Shown here: positions 13,350-49,596 of the stretch, in pieces | How positions within the stretch are numbered: the stretch's first letter is position 1 | How the letters are laid out: every line of letters begins with the position of its first letter | From: a virus | Taxonomy: Duplodnaviria > Caudoviricetes | Length of the DNA stretch: 64,000 nucleotides | Strand: one strand, 5' to 3' | IMG/VR virus record: IMGVR_UViG_3300023070_000002 | Location: 8,465 to 72,464 of that record | Notes under the pieces: generated by a model | What the model saw: only the letters and a program-made list of their open reading frames with translations | Told to the model about the DNA's origin: nothing | The model's database searches: none | Translations under genes and position numbers: made by a program

Positions 13350-16300
13350 TTATTCTTCCATACCAAAAAGTTCTTTTTTGGCTTCCCGTCTGGCTTGTTG
13401 CTTTACCTCTTTTTCAAAGTCCTCACGTTGTTTTTTGTCCAGTTTTTTAACTAAAATAGTGTCCCATGTGCCTGCCTCTGCATCGCTTGTAGTCCCTTTG
13501 GAGAGGTGTATTTCCCCACTAGCGTCTACATATATAAAATCATTTTTGTATAGATTAAGCAAGTCTTCCATCTTTTTTTCGCTCAACTTTATAAACTCCT
13601 CATTTTCTTTTTTTGTAGCTTGCCTTTTTTTGAATGTTACCGGGTCTTTTATGTCAAATGTCTTTGCCTCTTTAGCCGCATAGGTTTGTGTGCCTACACC
13701 AAACGCATTAGGCACTGTAACAGTAAATAGAGATTTCCAGCCCTGATCTTTTATTGACTCATCCATGCCTGAGAATGTCAGTGGAGTAAGGTGTTGCAAC
13801 AAATATTTCCCCATACCAACCTCCCCGTCATCACCCTTCCATTTTGTGGTTAGTTTATCGCCTGTTGTTGTTTTGCCATCCAAAATATCCCACATTACTG
13901 AAGCTACGGGAGCTGACTTGCCGCGTAAAAAGCTACTAAGCGCCGTAAGCCTTGTGCCTGCAAATGGGGTTTTACCATCCATATTAATTATAGCCCCACT
14001 GGTGGAAGACTTCTTTTGCCCCGTAATTAACATAGCTGCCAGCCTTATGTACTGCTGATGCCCACCCCAAATATCCCACCGGGTATTCCCTGACTTTATT
14101 TTACCAAAATCCGGGCTTCGCGGATCGTCTTCAGTTTCGGCACCTCCCGCTTTTGCTAAGGCAAGGATGGTCAGCCCTACACCAGCCGTAGCTAATAAAC
14201 TTTTAAAATAATCTAACCTTACTTCTTTTGGAAGGCTTTTGTAAAACCTTGGTTGCGCCAGATAGGTTAATGTATTGATCCTAGAAGCCATTAGTCTGGG
14301 AGAAAAGAACAGCCCACTAAGCAACGGGGTTGCCTGATTCATTGTTTCTCCCAAATCTCCACGACCAGTTATATTGTTTATGTAAGATGCAAGCTCTTTA
14401 TATTCCGTTTTGCTATTTTCAAAATTTCTACCGTCTTTTTGCATTAAGGCAGTAAAGTTATTAAACAAGTCTGCCCTCATTTTATTCAGGAACATGGAAT
14501 ACGCCCTTTCGCTACCTTTAATCAGTCGCCCCAATAATGGTATTCTTTGCGGCAGGTTGCTCATATACGCTTCTTCTTTCTGGCTTAAATGGGGGTTGTC
14601 TTTGTCAGTTATGGCAAGTCCAGACTCTTTCATCAATTCATAATTAGGGCTTTCCTTCAGGTTTTCAAACCACCTGTTATAAGCCTTTTCGCTAAAAGAA
14701 GCCTGAAACATTTTTCCAAATGCTTTCGTTCCAATTATGGGATGCCCCAATACTGCAAACAACCCTTGTCTTAAGGGCGCTGAATAGTCAACAGAAGCCA
14801 TTAGGGTACGAGGTATGTTTAGGATATTGGCGGCTTCGTTTTGTGCCTTATTTATGGCTGAAGAATTTTTGTACTCTTCCTGAAGTATTCTTTTCTCCCG
14901 CTCATTTTTTAATGCAATAAGTTTGTCTTGCAACGCTCTCGCTTCTTTGTCAAGAACAACCGGCTTTGGCGGTTCTTTTTCAAAATCCCCTGACTTTAAT
15001 TGTTCTTCAAGTTTTTCAATCTGGGATTTCACCTGCTTTTTATAATCTGCCAGTTTTGACAAGTCGTGCTCTTTGACCTGCTTTTTTAGCGCCTCAATGT
15101 CCTGATTACGTTTTATTTTTTCCTTCTCTGAAGATGGCTCTTTCCCGGCATTAAGTTCTTCTAGTTTGTTAATCAGTTTAGCTTCTGTTCTTAAATCCCG
15201 CAATTTGGCAGCCAACTCATTTCGTGTCTTCTTCTTTTCATTGTATTCCCCTGCAATAATATCCAGCACATCTTTTTCAGTAATGTCCTTTATTTCTTCT
15301 TTTAAAACACCGTGAACTTCTTTTACAATGTCTGACAATTTAGTTACACCTTCTTCAACTAGGTTTTTTACAAGTTTAGCTACGTCCGGAGCAATCGCAA
15401 ACAGTTCTTTTGCATAGGGAATAACTGTTACCTGCGTATCTTTTCTGGCTTTTGCTAATTTTTCCTTTATAGAAGACAGTATTTCTTTCCTTTCTGAAAC
15501 GAAATCGCTGTGCGTCTTCCTAGACCTTTTGGGCGCATCTTTTTTTATGGTTGCTTCGGCCTTTAATCTGGCATTTTCTGCCTCCAGCTTAGCAATTTTA
15601 GCGTCATATTTTTCTTGCGCTTCACTAATATTTTCATATTCCTTCTTGACTGTTTCTTTCTGGTTTTCTGTAAGCGGTGCGTCTTTGTTGGCCTCTATTT
15701 CTCTGAGCAAGTAATCAGCCAGTGTTTCTTCTACTGGCAATAACCCTTTTCTGGCTACCAGACTTTTACCAATCGCCCTTCCGGCTATATCACTTATACT
15801 TCTGGCTCGTTTAAATTCACTTAACAACTCATCGGTTGGGTTCTTATTGATTTTTGCTTTAAGGTTAGCTATATACCTTAACATCATCCGCTGATCTATC
15901 GGGTCATCAGTCTTGCCCTCGCGTAACCGGTTCAACATTTTTGCTACTGCGTTCGGGTCTTTTGCGAGTCTTTCATTTACTTGCTCATCCCACCCCTTAA
16001 CCGTTTCAGGGTCTTTTTCGTAATCTGGCAACCCTAATTCTTTAGCTGTTTTATTCATTTCAGCATGGGTAATACCTATTAGTTCACTTCCTTCAGTTAA
16101 GGGTTTTGTTTCTCCGGGCGCTGCTGTTGGCGGTTCTTTTGCACCTCCTTCTGTTGCTGCTTCGCTATTTTTATCAGGTTCTGAAGTTGAAGGGCTGACT
16201 TCTTCTGCGGGGATTGGTTCATTGTTTTTAACTGGCTCTTGGATATTTTCATTCTTTGATTGATCTTTTACTGAATTATTTTTCCATAAATTATCCCCCT

Positions 16301-19300
16301 CCAGCGTTGTAGTGTCTGTTTTTTTAACCTTGCCTACATTCTTATCCACGTAATCGTAGATGGCTTTTGCGAGTCCGATATTTTTGGTTTTTGATTTTAC
16401 ATCAGATCCTAATGCAATTGAATACGAATTGTCGCCGTTGTTTTCAAAAGTAGCAGATGAAACAACATCTCCATCCCCTGATTTAACTTCAACTACTACT
16501 TGTCCGTTTTCTCCCTTTGAACTTGATATGTAATATTGATCCCCGTTTTTGGCTATAAATGATTCCCCGTTTTCTGAACCATTAAACTCAGTACCCCTGT
16601 TATTCCAAACTTCCCCTTTTTTATTTTTCTCTTTCTTCCAGTCGTTCCAACTTGGTACTTGGGCTTCTGTCTTTCCTTGTGAAGGTTCATTCCCATTATC
16701 CAGTTCTCTTTGTTGGTCTATGGTTGGTATGTTTACCTCAAACTCAGGTTGCGATTGTTCAGGTGGTTTATACCCTTCAGGTAATTCCGGGTCAAGTTCT
16801 ATTGGTTCAGATATTTTTTCTTTCCCCTCAGTCGCTTTATCAATTTCCTTTTCCCACCTTTTATTTGCTACCTCTATCAATGTTTGCGGATACGCTTCCC
16901 GTGCTGCTTTACTTGAATTTCCTGCTGTGTTTTCTTTCCATTCCGAATCCAGATTATTTGCTCTTTGAGCAACTTCTTTTATAAATTCTCCTACTTTGGT
17001 TGGGTCAAACTTGTTTGTTGGCCTTCCGCTTTCATCTCTTACAGATAAAAGTTCCATACTTGACTTACCTAATAAGTCATTATCATAAAGTTCTTCAATA
17101 AAATTAGTATTAGACATGTCCGGGTTTAACGCCATCTCTTTTTCAATTTCAATCACTCTTAAATCCCTTTCTTCTTTACGTACTAATGACTGATCAGGGC
17201 TGTTTTTAAGCCTGTCTTTTAAAGCCTTTTCCCGTAATGATAAGACCATAAATTTACCGGCTGCTTCCGCGGGGACTCCCTTTGTCTCTAAGACTTCATT
17301 CAGGGATTCCAAGTGTTCAATATTGGCTAGTTTTTCTTTAGCAGATTGTGGATTAGTTAAGGCTTCCTGATTAACAAGTTCCCTGTACTTATCCCCGTTA
17401 TTAGCTATTTCAAGATAGGTACGTCCTAAATTCTCCTTGGACACCGGCAATTTACCAACTGCACCAGCTAAAGATAAAAATGTGGGCGTAAGAAAGTTTG
17501 TTTTATAATTTGTGATCGCGTCAGTAACCTCATCGGCAATATTAAATTTTCTTTGCCCGAATGCGGCGTCGAGTGCATTATGTGCAGTAGTAAACGCTGT
17601 TAGTACGCCCCCGGTCTTGGCGTTTTCTTTAACCGTATTGCTGAGCAAGGAAAATAACTTATCTCCCAAGTTGCTTTTTGCAGTGGCTTCAGTTATTTTT
17701 TTATTTGCCAAGTCGTCGATAGTTGAGACAATTTCTTCGGAAAACAATTTTTTGATGCCTTCCGCCGCCTTTTTAGTTGGCAATGCCTCCCCTAATGTCA
17801 TATCAATTCCGGTTGATAATAGCGTGTACAGGTTTTGCTTGCCTATGTCGTTGGGGAACTCCTTTCTTGCTTTGTCTGCATTTTGACCCTCAAACATCAG
17901 AGCCATAGTTACCGCTTGCGGGATTCTTAACTCTCCGCCCAATATCATCGGAACTGTAAAACCAGCAAATTGACCGCCCTGCTGAATAGTTTTCCTGAAG
18001 CCCGTACTTGGAATTACGCTTGGCATATTAGCTTCTTCTTCTTCCAGTCTTTTTGACCGGTCTTCATTTGTTTCCATTAAGCCTAAGTTCTGGAACAAAC
18101 TATTCCCTTTAGGGTCTAAAAAACCGCCCCCAACTGTTTTGTTTAAAATGTCGCGTGCAGAAGACGCCACGTCATTAACCCCTTTATAGATACCATATCC
18201 TGCATTATGAACAAGATCGGTTAATGGTATTACTGCATCAGAAGCGCCCATAACTGCATAGGGTCGTATCTTCTCATTGTATACGTCATATTCTTGTTGA
18301 GTCCAGTCGCCATTATCCAAGAGCATTTTAGCTGCCTTATCTGTCTTTTTTACGGAAGGATTAGCATACAGCCAGCCAGTCATTTTCTCATCCTCTAGTT
18401 TCTGCGCTAATTGTGAGGCTATTTTCTTTTGGGCATACGCCGGGAACTGGTTATACAGGTTGAATTTTTCGTCCCTGTATTGCCGGGCAAACTCAGGATC
18501 GGTTTCAGCCAGTTTAATGACGGTTGGATTATTTAAGAACTCATCCACCCGTAACCCGGCCATTGCTTGCGGCATTTCTTCAAGCCTTTTCCCGTTATAT
18601 CTTGATGCCATTTCAGGTATAGAGCCGCCCTTTTGAATAGCATCCTCTAACGCTCTCATACGTTTCATGGTATTGAACGCAGAGACCTCGGTTACATTAT
18701 TTTTATCTATATGTTTGGCTATTTCGTCTGCGTCAAACTCTTGGATAGGCGTTTGAGATGCACTTAATTTCTGTTCTGAAGCGATCTGTTCTGATAGTCC
18801 GGGGATAACCCCGGTTGACTTAGGGGATAACATGGCGCCCTTTTTTGCTAGGCGTTCCTGAAGATATTGTTCGGCAGCGTCCTTGTTGTCGCCAAACGCA
18901 TTTTTAATGGTATTAGAATTTTCCTGAAGTGCTTTAGACACTTTGAATGTATCGAATGCTGTTACCCCGGTTGGCTTACCTGATGTAACGTCTGGGTAAA
19001 TATATTGTGCAGCCTGCCTTTTTTCTGCATTTAATGCAGTCCCTAATGGGTCATCATTATCTGGAATGATTATTTTTTTACCACTTATCCATTCGTCAAA
19101 GTCTTGCTGGTTTTTGTTTTGGGAGCCGGGACTCTTCTTATCAGCATATTGCCTTTCCTGGTCTTTATGTAATTGCTGGGCATAGGCAGTCGCGGCTTCC
19201 GGTGTTTTAAATATCCCAAGATGCCTGCCAGTTTTTCTGTAATTGGCAATAGCTTCTTTTTCGGACATTATTCTGCCGTCATCCGAAACCGTTGGTATAA

Positions 19301-45117: not shown

Positions 45118-45435
45118 TTAGCTTGTTAAGATGCCGATTGTATAAATTATTTTCAACGCTTCAAGTCTAAATTCAGGCGGAGTACCCGGAAATGTTTCGT
45201 TTACGAATTTTCTCCATCCTATTTTCTCCTCATTATCTATGGTCTCAATTGGAGGGACGGACTTATATTTGGAAAGAAAAACGTGTCTTGGTATTGCCAA
45301 TGTGCAGTAGGCCTTTAAAATAGTCTGGTAAGACAGGTAATGGTGCTGCCACTCCCCGCTAATTTTTACAGGATATTTCATCCCCGATTGCAGGTCATTT
45401 AAATATCTTTCAACAAGACTTTCGGTCAGGTTCAT
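45118..45435 (-). CDS. hypothetical protein of the replication module
   Basis: 105 aa; coupled to upstream gene. Confidence 0.55.
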   Translation of the reverse strand: MNLTESLVERYLNDLQSGMKYPVKISGEWQHHYLSYQTILKAYCTLAIPRHVFLSKYKSVPPIETIDNEEKIGWRKFVNETFPGTPPEFRLEALKIIYTIGILTS

Positions 45436-46169
45436 TAGTTATTATAGTTTTTACGTTCCCTTCTTTCGTCTCTTTGTATCTGGGCTTTTGTTCTGTACTG
45501 TTCCATCATTTTACCAAAGGCGCTGCCGTCTTTCGGATTTTGCCGGTCAAAAATATTAGCATCCCCCATACTTTTGTAATATTCGTGCTGAGTATCTCTT
45601 ATTTTTATCGCCTCCTGCCATCTTTCATCCCTGTATTTATTAAAAAACAGGTTAAACTTTACTGCATCAATAGAGCCATACAAATCGCCATACTTCCCTC
45701 GTGTTAGCTGTTGAAGGAATAAAAGAAGGTCTGGTATGGAAATTTTATCATCTTTAGAATCATCAATAATCATTTCAGCAAGATCGACTATCTGAATCGG
45801 CGTCATTGGCGACTTCAGGTTCATTGCTTCCATTGCAAGGGTAATAGCAACCGTAATTATTGTAACGGTACCTCTCATGTCTCTTTCAGCCATTGCACAT
45901 ATCCTTTCCTCGTTTGGGATTTTAATAAGTTCCGCATAATTTGGCGCCGCTCCGTCCTTATACTTGCGTAGTTCATTATTCACGCCAACCCTGTCAATTC
46001 CCGTTACATCTACCTTCCCATCTTTAGTAAGTCCTTGCGCTAAGTATATCAGTAGTGATTTTTCTGTTTTGTTCGACTGAAGCTGATTTTGTTCCATTGT
46101 TGTTATTTTTAAGCATATAAAATCCTGACCATGTATTCTCGATAGATTGCATGATAATAGCCTTAGCAA
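45435..46169 (-). CDS. putative replication accessory protein (helicase-loader position)
   Basis: Overlaps end of initiator-like gene; GKYGDLYGSID motif; start uncertain. Confidence 0.45.
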   Translation of the reverse strand: MLRLLSCNLSRIHGQDFICLKITTMEQNQLQSNKTEKSLLIYLAQGLTKDGKVDVTGIDRVGVNNELRKYKDGAAPNYAELIKIPNEERICAMAERDMRGTVTIITVAITLAMEAMNLKSPMTPIQIVDLAEMIIDDSKDDKISIPDLLLFLQQLTRGKYGDLYGSIDAVKFNLFFNKYRDERWQEAIKIRDTQHEYYKSMGDANIFDRQNPKDGSAFGKMMEQYRTKAQIQRDERRERKNYNN

Positions 46170-46348: not shown

Positions 46349-47323
46349 TCATTTCTCCTTTTTAAAATTATAACCAATAACAGGGGTTGTGACAATGGCT
46401 CTGTCAATAAGATTGTTAAATCTCCACAACGGCGTTTTATCTCTATGATTAAACTTCCAAACTATTTCATCCATATAATTTTGCACATACTCATGCCCAA
46501 TTTTAGTATGCGCCCCGCGTATATTACGTTTCATAACGCCCCAAAAGTTTTCAATACTATTAGTATGTACCTCTTCCCGAACATATTCATGTTTAGAATG
46601 CTCTACAAAATCATGCTCATAACTTTTTTTCAGGTTATTATATCCTGACCATCCGTCCGTAAATATTGTTGTATTTGGTTCAACATGCCTGCCGATAACC
46701 TCGTCAAGTGTTTTAATATTTCTTTCTTCAATCAGTTCGACCTTAATCAAACCTGATTTTCTTTCCAAGAATCCCAAAATAGGCTGTTTTCGAGTTTTGC
46801 AAATCGAACCCCACCTTGACCATTTGGTGCCGCCGCCAATAAAGGCTTCGTCAATTTCAACTACCCCAGAAAACTTTCCCAGAGGGACTTGAAAAAGGCT
46901 TTTCCTAATAGACTTCATCATTCGATGCGCCGTTTTATACTCAATATTTAGGTTTTTACTTGCCTGTATTGCTGAAATATTTTTCTTACTTATGCTACTG
47001 TTATACATCAAATAAAACCAGTAAGGAAGCGGAGTTGTCGTTTTTTGAAAAATCGTCCCCGCAGTTACGCATATTTGTTTTGAACATTTTACGCATTGAT
47101 AACGCTTTCCGCCTTTCATCATCTTGAACGTATCTTCTTTTGATTTAAGACACACACACCTATTGCCTGCTTTGTTTTTTTTTAAATATAAGAACCTAAA
47201 GCATTTTTCTATATCAGATGTTTTCTGCAAAAAGTCAAACAAACTAATATTCTCATCGGTTATTCCGAAAATATCGCTGAAGATTTCTAAATCAGTATTA
47301 TTCATAATTTCTTTTTTTTGCAT
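46349..47323 (-). mobile_element. IS1595-family (ISXO2-like) DDE transposase
   Basis: Zn ribbon CVC..CVKC; VEIDEAFIGG; IFTDGWSGY; HTNSIENFWGVMKR; QNYMDEIVWKFN; element ends not defined. Confidence 0.85.
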
Positions 47324-48533: not shown

Positions 48534-48541
48534 TACGTTTG
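48534..48541 (+). promoter_or_regulatory. rightward early promoter
   Basis: TACGTTTG, with TTG 20 nt upstream (48511). Confidence 0.7.
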
Positions 48542-49088: not shown

Positions 49089-49268
49089 GGAGTAGTAGAG
49101 AATGTGGCGGAGTTAAACGCATAGTTTGGTTGGACATTTAGAAATTGCACTTACGGCTTAGAAAAGCGTGAATTTGCGAACCGTATTGAGGCATCACGTA
49201 AAAATCGAACTATAAGCCGAACGTATTTTGGTTGCAGGTATCAAATCCTGTCATTCTCTATTTACTCC
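49089..49268 (+). ncRNA. tRNA-shaped RNA with expanded anticodon domain
   Basis: Acceptor GAGAATG/CATTCTC; D-arm TGGCGGAG..CGC; T-arm GCAGG-TATCAAAT-CCTGT; long variable arm; 71-nt loop; no CCA. Confidence 0.65.
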
Positions 49269-49305: not shown

Positions 49306-49596
49306 ATGACAAAAATCCTTGACGAGGTACGGGCGATAAGTTCCGATGCTATCGCTAAAAAACAAGACAGCGCAAAAGTTAATCTACCCCAACTGATTGA
49401 AGATATTAAAAAGGCAGCAGCGCTTGGAAAAACAGAATGCATATTTAGGCAGCACGAAATCGACCAGTATGCAAAAAAGTTACTTGAAGCAGAAGGGTTT
49501 CGTGTTTATTCAACCACCCGCGCCCCTTTATCTTACGACAAACTTAGTTATTTACCAAAGGAGCCGGAACCAGTTTGGCAGGTAACATGGCTGTAA
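49306..49596 (+). CDS. hypothetical protein
   Basis: 96-aa ORF. Confidence 0.6.
   Translation: MTKILDEVRAISSDAIAKKQDSAKVNLPQLIEDIKKAAALGKTECIFRQHEIDQYAKKLLEAEGFRVYSTTRAPLSYDKLSYLPKEPEPVWQVTWL

Follow-up and report, generated by a model that had tools for sequence, protein, structure and literature searches.

The question raised by this locus is which kind of RNA is encoded by a stretch of 180 bases that folds as a class II transfer RNA (tRNA) and carries, at the place of the anticodon arm, a stem closed by a 71-nt loop. The element lies at positions 49089-49268, on the plus strand, of a window of 64,000 nucleotides (nt), by which is meant the whole stretch of DNA that was analysed, corresponding to the bulk of the 72,464-nt IMG/VR phage record IMGVR_UViG_3300023070_000002 (CheckV completeness, 100%). 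The results discussed below indicate that it is a genuine phage gene for a folded RNA, present in a single copy in the whole 72,464-nt genome, descended from tRNA-Leu and unable to read codons. It is, moreover, very probably a selected member of a tRNA-Leu-derived, non-decoding family.

The first line of evidence is the fold itself. All the pairings listed in a first-pass annotation of this DNA were found where they had been placed, and the minimum-energy structure given by RNAfold was exactly this cloverleaf, with 44 bp and -54.2 kcal/mol. The element was more stable than its dinucleotide shuffles (-38.9 +/- 3.9 kcal/mol; z -3.95), none of 200 being as stable, and more stable than its own reverse strand (-40.6 kcal/mol); five of its G-U pairs are compatible with the plus strand only. 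The absence of a CCA end and of a D-loop GG, also pointed out in that annotation, was verified in the sequence: no CCA is encoded, the nucleotides from position 73 on being paired with the leader, and the 8-nt D loop, GAGTTAAA (RNA GAGUUAAA), lacks G18G19. The inner three acceptor pairs, A-U, U-A and G-C, are the ..AUG/CAU.. conserved in the family and in tRNA-Leu, and position 3:70 corresponds to G49100-C49256, which is G-C and not G-U. The 71-nt loop harbours weak internal hairpins, with no 7-nt anticodon loop inside it, and the frame GHLEIALTA-stop is present in the element.

The element is not recognised by the search tools commonly used for such genes. ARAGORN was silent at this position under default settings, whether introns were allowed or not, and in transfer-messenger RNA (tmRNA) mode. 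No described family of Rfam 15 matched it, either at the gathering threshold or at E<=10 in a 551-nt search. When the threshold was lowered and introns were allowed, ARAGORN proposed an 88-nt 'tRNA' with an arbitrarily placed 76-nt 'intron'. The Rfam tRNA model picked up the tRNAs that flank members of the family and missed the members tested. This silence, of default ARAGORN and Rfam on the element of the window and of the tRNA model on those members, constitutes a blind spot of annotation. Open-access literature searches returned no description of a phage RNA resembling tRNA-Leu, devoid of an anticodon and provided with an 8-nt T loop; the family is not annotated, and no published name was found for it.

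Direct sequence comparison returned no carrier of the element: blastn against cultured phages and an exact 21-mer search in IMG/VR gave nothing, and neither the terminase (TerL) relative L004 nor the open reading frame (ORF) relatives L002 and L003 contained it (retrieved loci are designated here by L and a number). The family was reached by three partly independent routes, based on synteny, on a T-arm pattern and on a D-arm pattern. In the synteny route, homologues of the 96-aa ORF found downstream of the element (53-63% identity) were used to fetch neighbouring DNA, and a 73-nt tRNA-like gene was observed 5′ of one of them (L017:228-300). It presents a 12-bp acceptor helix, the GCG/CGC D stem, a short middle and the T arm GUAGG-UAUGGAAU-CCUGC, with an 8-nt loop. 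A near-perfect hairpin of ~100 nt (L017:314-420) was also noticed between this short member and the ORF homologue, the 206-nt whole folding at z -6.25. In L015 and L016, the homologue is preceded by a tRNA-Leu-like gene (L015:276-400, equal to L016:270-394) with a normal acceptor, the D-loop GG, a 7-nt T loop, A73 and an abnormal 73-nt middle, which ARAGORN with introns reads as Leu(GAG) with a 39-nt intron at position 31/32. This gene was not counted as a member because its T loop is normal and it was not matched by the covariance model R2 described below. A true tmRNA (RF00023, 61.9 bits, E 4.6e-22) was identified in the early region of L002 (1439-1825) and likewise in L003, ~1.2 kb upstream of their shared homologue of the 96-aa ORF. 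A 14-nt match to the element in L002 lies inside an ORF and was rejected as chance.

In the pattern routes, the T-arm motif GYAGGTATNNAATCCTGYCAT and its G-C variant were scanned in IMG/VR and in species genomes, and the D-arm motif of the window was scanned in IMG/VR. The T-arm pattern led to members in cyanophage tRNA arrays and to L034, L036, L230, L231, L241, L246 and L252, and the loci found in this way also carried the D arm AUG-UG-GCG-RA..A.A-CGC, which was absent from the query pattern. The D-arm pattern led to L040 and L034, both with an 8-nt T loop that was not in the query, and the T stem of L040, GUGGG/CCCAC, covaries. The T-arm and D-arm motifs validate each other. A cyanophage D-arm pattern returned 79 loci, 35 of which were scored as elements (21 distinct sequences), all with the loop UAUCAAAY; each of the 30 distinct sequences without the hallmark loop looks like a chance match in coding sequence. 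Chance matches were also discarded elsewhere: essentially only such matches were found among those listed in a metagenome scan with TGGCGNNNGTTAAACGC, and they made up about half of the T-arm matches in cellular genomes, many being the reverse strand of gene starts of the type ATG-GCA-GGA... The comparison of L241, L230 and L040 with cultured phages by blastn yielded no match.

The members gathered in this way are carried by cyanophage tRNA arrays, two jumbo phages, other phage contigs and a few contigs of metagenome-assembled genomes (MAGs), with one copy per genome, and they often adjoin tRNA-Leu genes. They have in common the acceptor end ..AUG/CAU.., U8-G9, a 3-bp GCG/CGC D stem, a T stem of the GCAGG/CCUGY type and the hallmark of the family, an 8-nt T loop of sequence UAUNNAAU. 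The D loop is usually without GG, and the anticodon arm is replaced by unrelated hairpins of 14 to ~190 nt. The 5′ and 3′ ends are paired, in most members as an acceptor helix of 8-14 bp (~7 bp in L034, L040 and L246), and N73, which may be A, C or U, is not conserved and is base-paired, with no conserved CCA. In the single-sequence folds, 10/10 members displayed the acceptor, the D arm, a variable middle and the T arm with its 8-nt loop. The window presents the same traits. As in all members, its T arm reads as UAUNNAAY on GNNGG/CCNNY followed by CAU (GCAGG-UAUCAAAU-CCUGU-CAU, 49234-49254); its 5′ half is that of the class II members (GAGAAUG-UG-GCG-GAGUUAAA-CGC, 49098-49120), at positions invariant in alignment A5; and its extended acceptor consists of helices of 9 and 6 bp separated by a small internal loop.

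Two forms could be distinguished. The short form (64-74 nt) is found inside cyanophage tRNA arrays, with an acceptor helix of 8-11 bp and, instead of the anticodon arm, a 3-5-bp hairpin with a tetraloop (UUCG, UAUA). One short member, unannotated, is located between tRNA-Leu(UAA) and tRNA-Thr in the cultured Synechococcus phage S-CAM9, at approximately 16264-16329 of NC_031922. The class II form, which is that of the window, was identified in L034 and L036 (the jumbo phages, of 268 and 306 kb), L040, L230, L231 and the MAG contigs L241, L246 and L252. Its layout is ..AUG, UG and GCG-(8-11 nt)-CGC, then the middle, then UG-NNGG-UAUNNAAU-CCNNY-CAU, in which the middle spans 43 to ~190 nt and its hairpins are unrelated between members. 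The D arms of L034 and L040 are near-identical to that of the window, the D stem being invariant in alignment A5, and comparable variable-arm hairpins are predicted in both. In L034, the member (1884-2046) is preceded, 7 nt upstream, by the promoter-like motif TAAATTTG (Bacteroidota -7-type) and followed, ~15 nt downstream, by an intrinsic terminator, so it has the appearance of a stand-alone RNA gene. The family occurs only sporadically in cellular genomes, with four real members among the 18 loci returned by the motif scan of species genomes.

Covariance models were used to compare these sequences as structures, R1 being built from the 21 cyanophage sequences and R2 from eight class II members, with the window excluded. 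R2 matched the window over its full length (49097-49259, model positions 1-184; 53.3 bits) at E 2.3e-10, this and its other E-values being partly inflated because the members had been collected by motifs from the window, and the match at the element was the sole significant one in the 64 kb. The same model matched the cyanophage forms (E 1e-6 to 5e-4) and L017 (E 1e-3), and gave no match to rnaC and rnaD of phage T4 (T4 tRNA region, L227) or to L015. R1 matched L017 over its full length (E 3.5e-6) and L040 (E 0.06); in the window it detected the T arm only (E 0.02), because a 113-nt middle is too costly for this model.

In a model-guided alignment of 16 sequences, 93.8% of the cells were paired, and cells changed on both sides numbered 47, against 13.4 +/- 3.0 in shuffled alignments and 3-9 with slid partners. 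Double changes were observed in five acceptor pairs and two T-stem pairs; the outer acceptor pairs covary, the inner three are near-invariant, and the pairs beyond 7 bp covary within the cyanophages. Covariation in the family thus bears out the acceptor and T helices of the first-pass annotation, whereas the 11-bp stem, the 71-nt loop and the variable arm of the window are outside its reach. The RNA of this family is conserved, covarying, phage-borne, non-decoding and descended from tRNA-Leu. The parts of the element and the two ORFs beside it are listed in the table below.

Parts of the tRNA-Leu-like element and its flanking open reading frames (window positions)
Feature	Coordinates	Strand	Details
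Upstream ORF, 74 aa	48839..49063	+	Stop codon ends 25 nt 5′ of the element; no family match
Outer helix, 5′ strand GGAGUA, 6 bp	49089..49094	+	Pairs with TACTCC 49263-49268; sequence and minimum-energy fold
1x2 internal loop between outer and acceptor helices	G49095 / UU49261-62	+	Minimum-energy fold
Acceptor helix, 5′ strand TAGAGAATG, 9 bp	49096..49104	+	Pairs with CATTCTCTA 49252-49260; sequence, fold and covariation
U8-G9, then class II-type D arm	49105..49120	+	GCG 49107-09 / CGC 49118-20, 8-nt loop
Arm at anticodon position	49121..49213	+	11-bp stem 49121-31/49203-13 (two G-U), 71-nt loop 49132-49202
Variable arm, 7-bp hairpin (two G-U), 5-nt loop	49215..49233	+	49215-21/49227-33; fold
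T arm	49234..49251	+	GCAGG 49234-38 / CCTGT 49247-51; 8-nt loop TATCAAAT (RNA UAUCAAAU)
3′ strands of acceptor helix (49252-60) and outer helix (49263-68)	49252..49268	+	No CCA; position 73 is a paired U
Downstream ORF, 96 aa, phrog_3012 (function not assigned)	49306..49596	+	Start 38 nt 3′ of the element

The descent of the family was indicated by its resemblance to an ordinary tRNA. A search of one cellular family found a member in 1/56 genomes, which was the query's own genome; the other match was a bacterial tRNA-Leu(CAG) (L264:702-789), which scored 34 bits with R2. The window and this tRNA agree at 22/32 positions in the 5′ part and at 23/30 in the 3′ part, the tRNA having 'UUGG' in its D loop and a T loop one base shorter. 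On account of these shared letters and limited differences, the family reads as a tRNA-Leu in which five changes have taken place: insertion of an A after T54, loss (usual) of the D-loop GG, replacement of the anticodon arm, pairing of the ends, and a variable, paired N73 without CCA. No feature on which the usual life cycle of a tRNA depends has been left unaltered. In fact, the T loop of the family equals that of tRNA-Leu, UUCAAGU or UUCAAAU, plus one inserted A, and the usual lack of G18G19 in the D loop means that the elbow is remodelled.

In comparison with bacterial class II tRNA-Leu (RF00005), the element of the window retains ..AUG/CAU.., U8-G9, the GCG/CGC D stem with RA...AGA-type flanks, the GCAGG/CCUGU T stem and the variable arm. 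Unlike tRNA-Leu, it has no anticodon stem-loop, a T loop of 8 instead of 7 nt, no G18G19, no encoded CCA and no conserved A73; its ends are paired into a long helix, and default ARAGORN and the Rfam tRNA model miss it. The attributes by which a canonical elongator tRNA is known, namely a 5-bp anticodon stem with a 7-nt loop (U33, purine 37), a 7-nt T loop (T54-Psi55-C56-R57-A58) that builds the elbow with G18G19 of the D loop, and a call by Rfam or ARAGORN, are all missing. The proposal of a tRNA mimic in the first-pass annotation was supported by these comparisons and could be sharpened to a tRNA-Leu-derived, anticodon-less member of a conserved phage family.

The position of the element in the genome suggests when it might be transcribed. 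The terminase and portal genes of the phage are on the minus strand, the coding strand and the skew switch at about 48.4-48.5 kb of the window, and the element is ~600 nt inside the block of rightward genes. This placement is compatible with a putative assignment to the earliest transcript, as had been suggested. No tRNA or tmRNA gene was found in the whole phage genome. Pfam and PHROG assigned no function to the ORFs flanking the element, and no terminator was seen between it and these early ORFs. Nothing informative emerged from scans for promoters and terminators near the element: the window shows no enrichment of TAnnTTTG, of which a single copy was found upstream of the element on the plus strand, at 48534. 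The complementarity of the 71-nt loop to the phage genome in antisense never exceeded 13 nt, with no strong target. On the other side of the strand switch, an intact transposase of the IS1595-type DDE class was observed at 46349-47323 on the minus strand (Pfam DDE_Tnp_IS1595, E 6.8e-36), adjoined by a DUF6633 gene at 45435-46169 inside the phage genome.

Several side observations concern the loci of other members. The member of L040 directly follows a normal tRNA-Phe(GAA) and precedes a tRNA-Leu(GAG), and it is the sole member with a possible anticodon loop. Near the member of L230, a tRNA with anticodon CTA was found (952-1023; labelled 'tRNA-Pyl' by ARAGORN), and this phage may read TAG as a sense codon. 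The 224-nt member of L231 (320-543) is flanked on both sides by the direct repeat TTGTTCTATTAAAAT, which may represent either a promoter or intergenic motif present in repeated copies or the duplication of a target site. In L025, L031, L035 and L037, an arm-less tRNA-like unit occupies the ~45 nt directly 5′ of the cyanophage member, being composed of a 7-bp acceptor (GGGTAGT/RCTATCC) and one hairpin with a CUGAUAA loop (Ile GAU-like). A lone T arm of the family type, followed by CAU, was observed directly after a tRNA in L019 (1020-1041) and L028, with no matching 5′ half found; it may be the remnant of a disrupted member. The ORF upstream of it is presumably HNH-like, judging from a reading of its translation.

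Regarding function, the explanation that best accommodates the observations as a whole is that of a single-copy, non-decoding structured RNA, evolved from tRNA-Leu, acting as a protein-binding mimic or decoy. We give this explanation about an even chance, as a compromise between the high probability of family membership and the lower one of the mechanism, since action as a protein-binding mimic or decoy is itself put forward tentatively, at somewhat worse than an even chance. According to this proposal, the RNA would be produced as part of the early rightward transcript and, in other phages, either inside a tRNA array or as a unit with a promoter-like motif and a terminator of its own. It would then be excised or trimmed to its closed helix, persisting as a stable RNA that would be neither charged nor used on the ribosome. 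Its tRNA-Leu-like body would bind a protein that recognises the shape of a tRNA without regard to the anticodon. The most plausible role would be that of a decoy or competitor directed at a host factor that targets or processes tRNAs, and the variable middle region would be a lineage-specific appendage.

Some observations are in line with this proposal. In E. coli, A73 is the main identity element for the leucyl-tRNA synthetase (LeuRS), and the fact that A73 is not kept in the family argues against charging. Anticodon-independent readers of the class II tRNA body do exist, as illustrated by MenT3, of the DUF1814/AbiEii abortive-infection family, whose preference for class II tRNA-Ser is exerted through the variable loop of this tRNA (PMC11541572, PMC11162799). 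One of the roles first suggested for the element, that of a decoy aimed specifically at anticodon nucleases, is unlikely, since it has no anticodon loop to offer them. A further and rather doubtful extension is that phages of unrelated hosts (cyanobacteria, probably Bacteroidota, and others) share an ancient 'disarmed' tRNA-Leu, which would be incapable of normal 5′ maturation, charging and decoding and would be retained because its body binds an anticodon-independent reader of the class II tRNA shape and neutralises or redirects it. The candidate targets would be a DUF1814/AbiEii-MenT-like or Schlafen-like toxin, RNase P or LeuRS. If true, the RNA would represent an RNA-based counter-defence or host-takeover factor, and this would also suggest a purpose for RNAs of the T4 RNA C type.

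Other observations weigh against a protein-binding mimic. The remodelled elbow could equally mean that the RNA was built to avoid tRNA-binding proteins, and a decoy with neither a free 3′ end nor an anticodon loop would lack the very site that most known toxins directed at tRNAs attack. No protein gene is conserved beside the members across the loci of the family, that is, there is no shared partner gene. The member of L040 (3158-3246) was called tRNA-Phe(GAA) by ARAGORN, with a loop GUGAAAG on a 4-bp stem. Moreover, the members behind R2 were gathered with motifs derived from the window, and part of the signal of this model is general likeness to tRNA-Leu. Finally, no close relative of this phage carrying the element was found in the collections searched, and for this reason the support for the 11-bp stem, the 71-nt loop and the variable arm of the window is thermodynamic.

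Alternatively, the element might act only in cis. It has a precedent as processing punctuation in the t-elements of plant mitochondria and in the early RNase III sites of T7, and it might be a cleavage signal for RNase P, RNase Z, RNase E or RNase III that separates early cistrons or sets transcript ends, the excised RNA being functionless. Its position between two early ORFs, with spacers of 25 and 38 nt and no terminator, would suit this role, as would its acceptor-T stack, which is what RNase P and RNase Z measure, and the ~20-bp duplex formed by the outer helix, acceptor and T stem. Nevertheless, such a signal is improbable: most members are located in tRNA arrays or stand alone with their own promoter-like motif and terminator, where an extra cleavage signal is needless; the strict conservation of T-loop and D-arm sequences and the remodelled elbow exceed what cleavage requires; and a paired leader and an altered elbow should weaken recognition by RNase P. 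A cis-regulatory leader of the downstream 96-aa gene (phrog_3012 family) would account for the three loci in which homologues of this ORF are preceded by a family member (the window and L017) or by a tRNA-Leu-like gene (L015). It has a slim chance, however, as homologues in L002, L010, L011 and L012 lack an element of this kind upstream, the ORF is missing from the surroundings of most family members, and the spacing to it varies from 38 to ~260 nt. A slimmer chance still is given to a tRNA-Leu pseudogene, wrecked by an insertion and drifting. Rejection by gene finders, the loss of D-loop GG, CCA and anticodon, and a middle unique to this phage are what decay would leave, but the same departures (the extra A of the T loop, the paired ends, the missing anticodon arm) recur in cyanophages and other lineages as well as in a relative of this phage, the family showing base changes that compensate each other and loops that do not vary, and the fold of the window's copy is intact, with its 44 bp.

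Two other explanations were considered, and both fail direct tests. The RNA might be charged and used off the decoding path, either as an aminoacyl carrier for a non-ribosomal reaction or as a mini tmRNA-like rescue RNA translating the GHLEIALTA frame. LeuRS, SerRS and AlaRS ignore the anticodon, a true tmRNA is encoded in this same genome region by two related phages, and the frame does resemble a tag. The probability of this explanation is nonetheless very small: position 3:70 is G-C, N73 is variable (A, C or U) and paired, there is no CCA, a D stem is present and pseudoknots are absent, and neither the middle nor its frames are conserved. The tmRNA detectors were silent on the element, which obtained no score by the same method that gave the true tmRNA of L002 its 61.9 bits. 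For these reasons, the resemblance to the tmRNA tags of Bacteroidota, which the first-pass annotation had itself regarded as perhaps fortuitous, is most likely a coincidence. The intron-containing tRNA that it had also considered, which would be spliced to a functional tRNA, has a minimal probability, despite the 88-nt tRNA with a 76-nt intron that ARAGORN could be made to propose. The proposed splice points cut the 11-bp stem, the anticodon assignment is arbitrary, and 71-76 nt are too short for a group I intron. In the short members, tetraloop hairpins occupy this place and leave nothing to splice out; an anticodon loop of 7 nt is not restored in any member, and signals for splicing were not observed. 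In addition, the 8-nt T loop, the GG-less D loop and the paired ends would be just as abnormal in a spliced product.

The mimic or decoy proposal is of interest since phage tRNA genes are now viewed as weapons against host enzymes that target tRNAs. To our knowledge, non-decoding tRNA-like RNAs of phages have been without an explanation ever since the sequencing of T4 RNA C in the 1970s. Phage tRNA-like non-coding RNAs are known as a kind; this wide and sharply defined family is not known to have been described. It is recognisable by a searchable model and by clear departures from tRNA-Leu, it is widely spread among phages, and it has one cultured carrier, the Synechococcus phage S-CAM9. The model and the cultured carrier make the question of the family's role open to experiment.

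Among known systems, the closest analogue is T4 species 1 RNA (rnaC), which resembles the element in architecture, with no detectable homology. This RNA of 139 nt is encoded at the end of the T4 tRNA cluster and, like the element, is a small stable phage-encoded RNA with a tRNA-like acceptor and T arm and no anticodon; long hairpins replace its D and anticodon arms, and another stands at the variable-arm position. In contrast to the element, the T loop of rnaC is a normal one (7 nt, UUCGAAU), a class II D arm is absent and, in the computed fold, the 5′/3′ helix is short and imperfect. The function of rnaC has stayed unexplained for decades (PMC3014915, PMC9697503). The tmRNA (RF00023) shares with the element a tRNA-like acceptor and T arm around a large insert with a short open frame, whereas the element has neither G3-U70 nor pseudoknots and possesses a D stem, a variable arm, an 8-nt T loop and paired ends. 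YrlA (RF02553), also found in some phages, is a non-coding tRNA mimic that, like the element, combines T and D arms with a long terminal helix of its 5′ and 3′ ends. These ends reportedly leave at the anticodon side, in a permuted layout, and the RNA is said to bind Ro60. The element is not permuted, its ends extending the acceptor helix, and YrlA gave no Rfam match at this position. Finally, the t-elements of plant mitochondria are reportedly anticodon-less tRNA-like acceptor/T structures, situated between mRNAs or at their ends, that serve as cleavage signals only; unlike them, the present family displays invariant loop sequences, a D arm and stand-alone gene copies.

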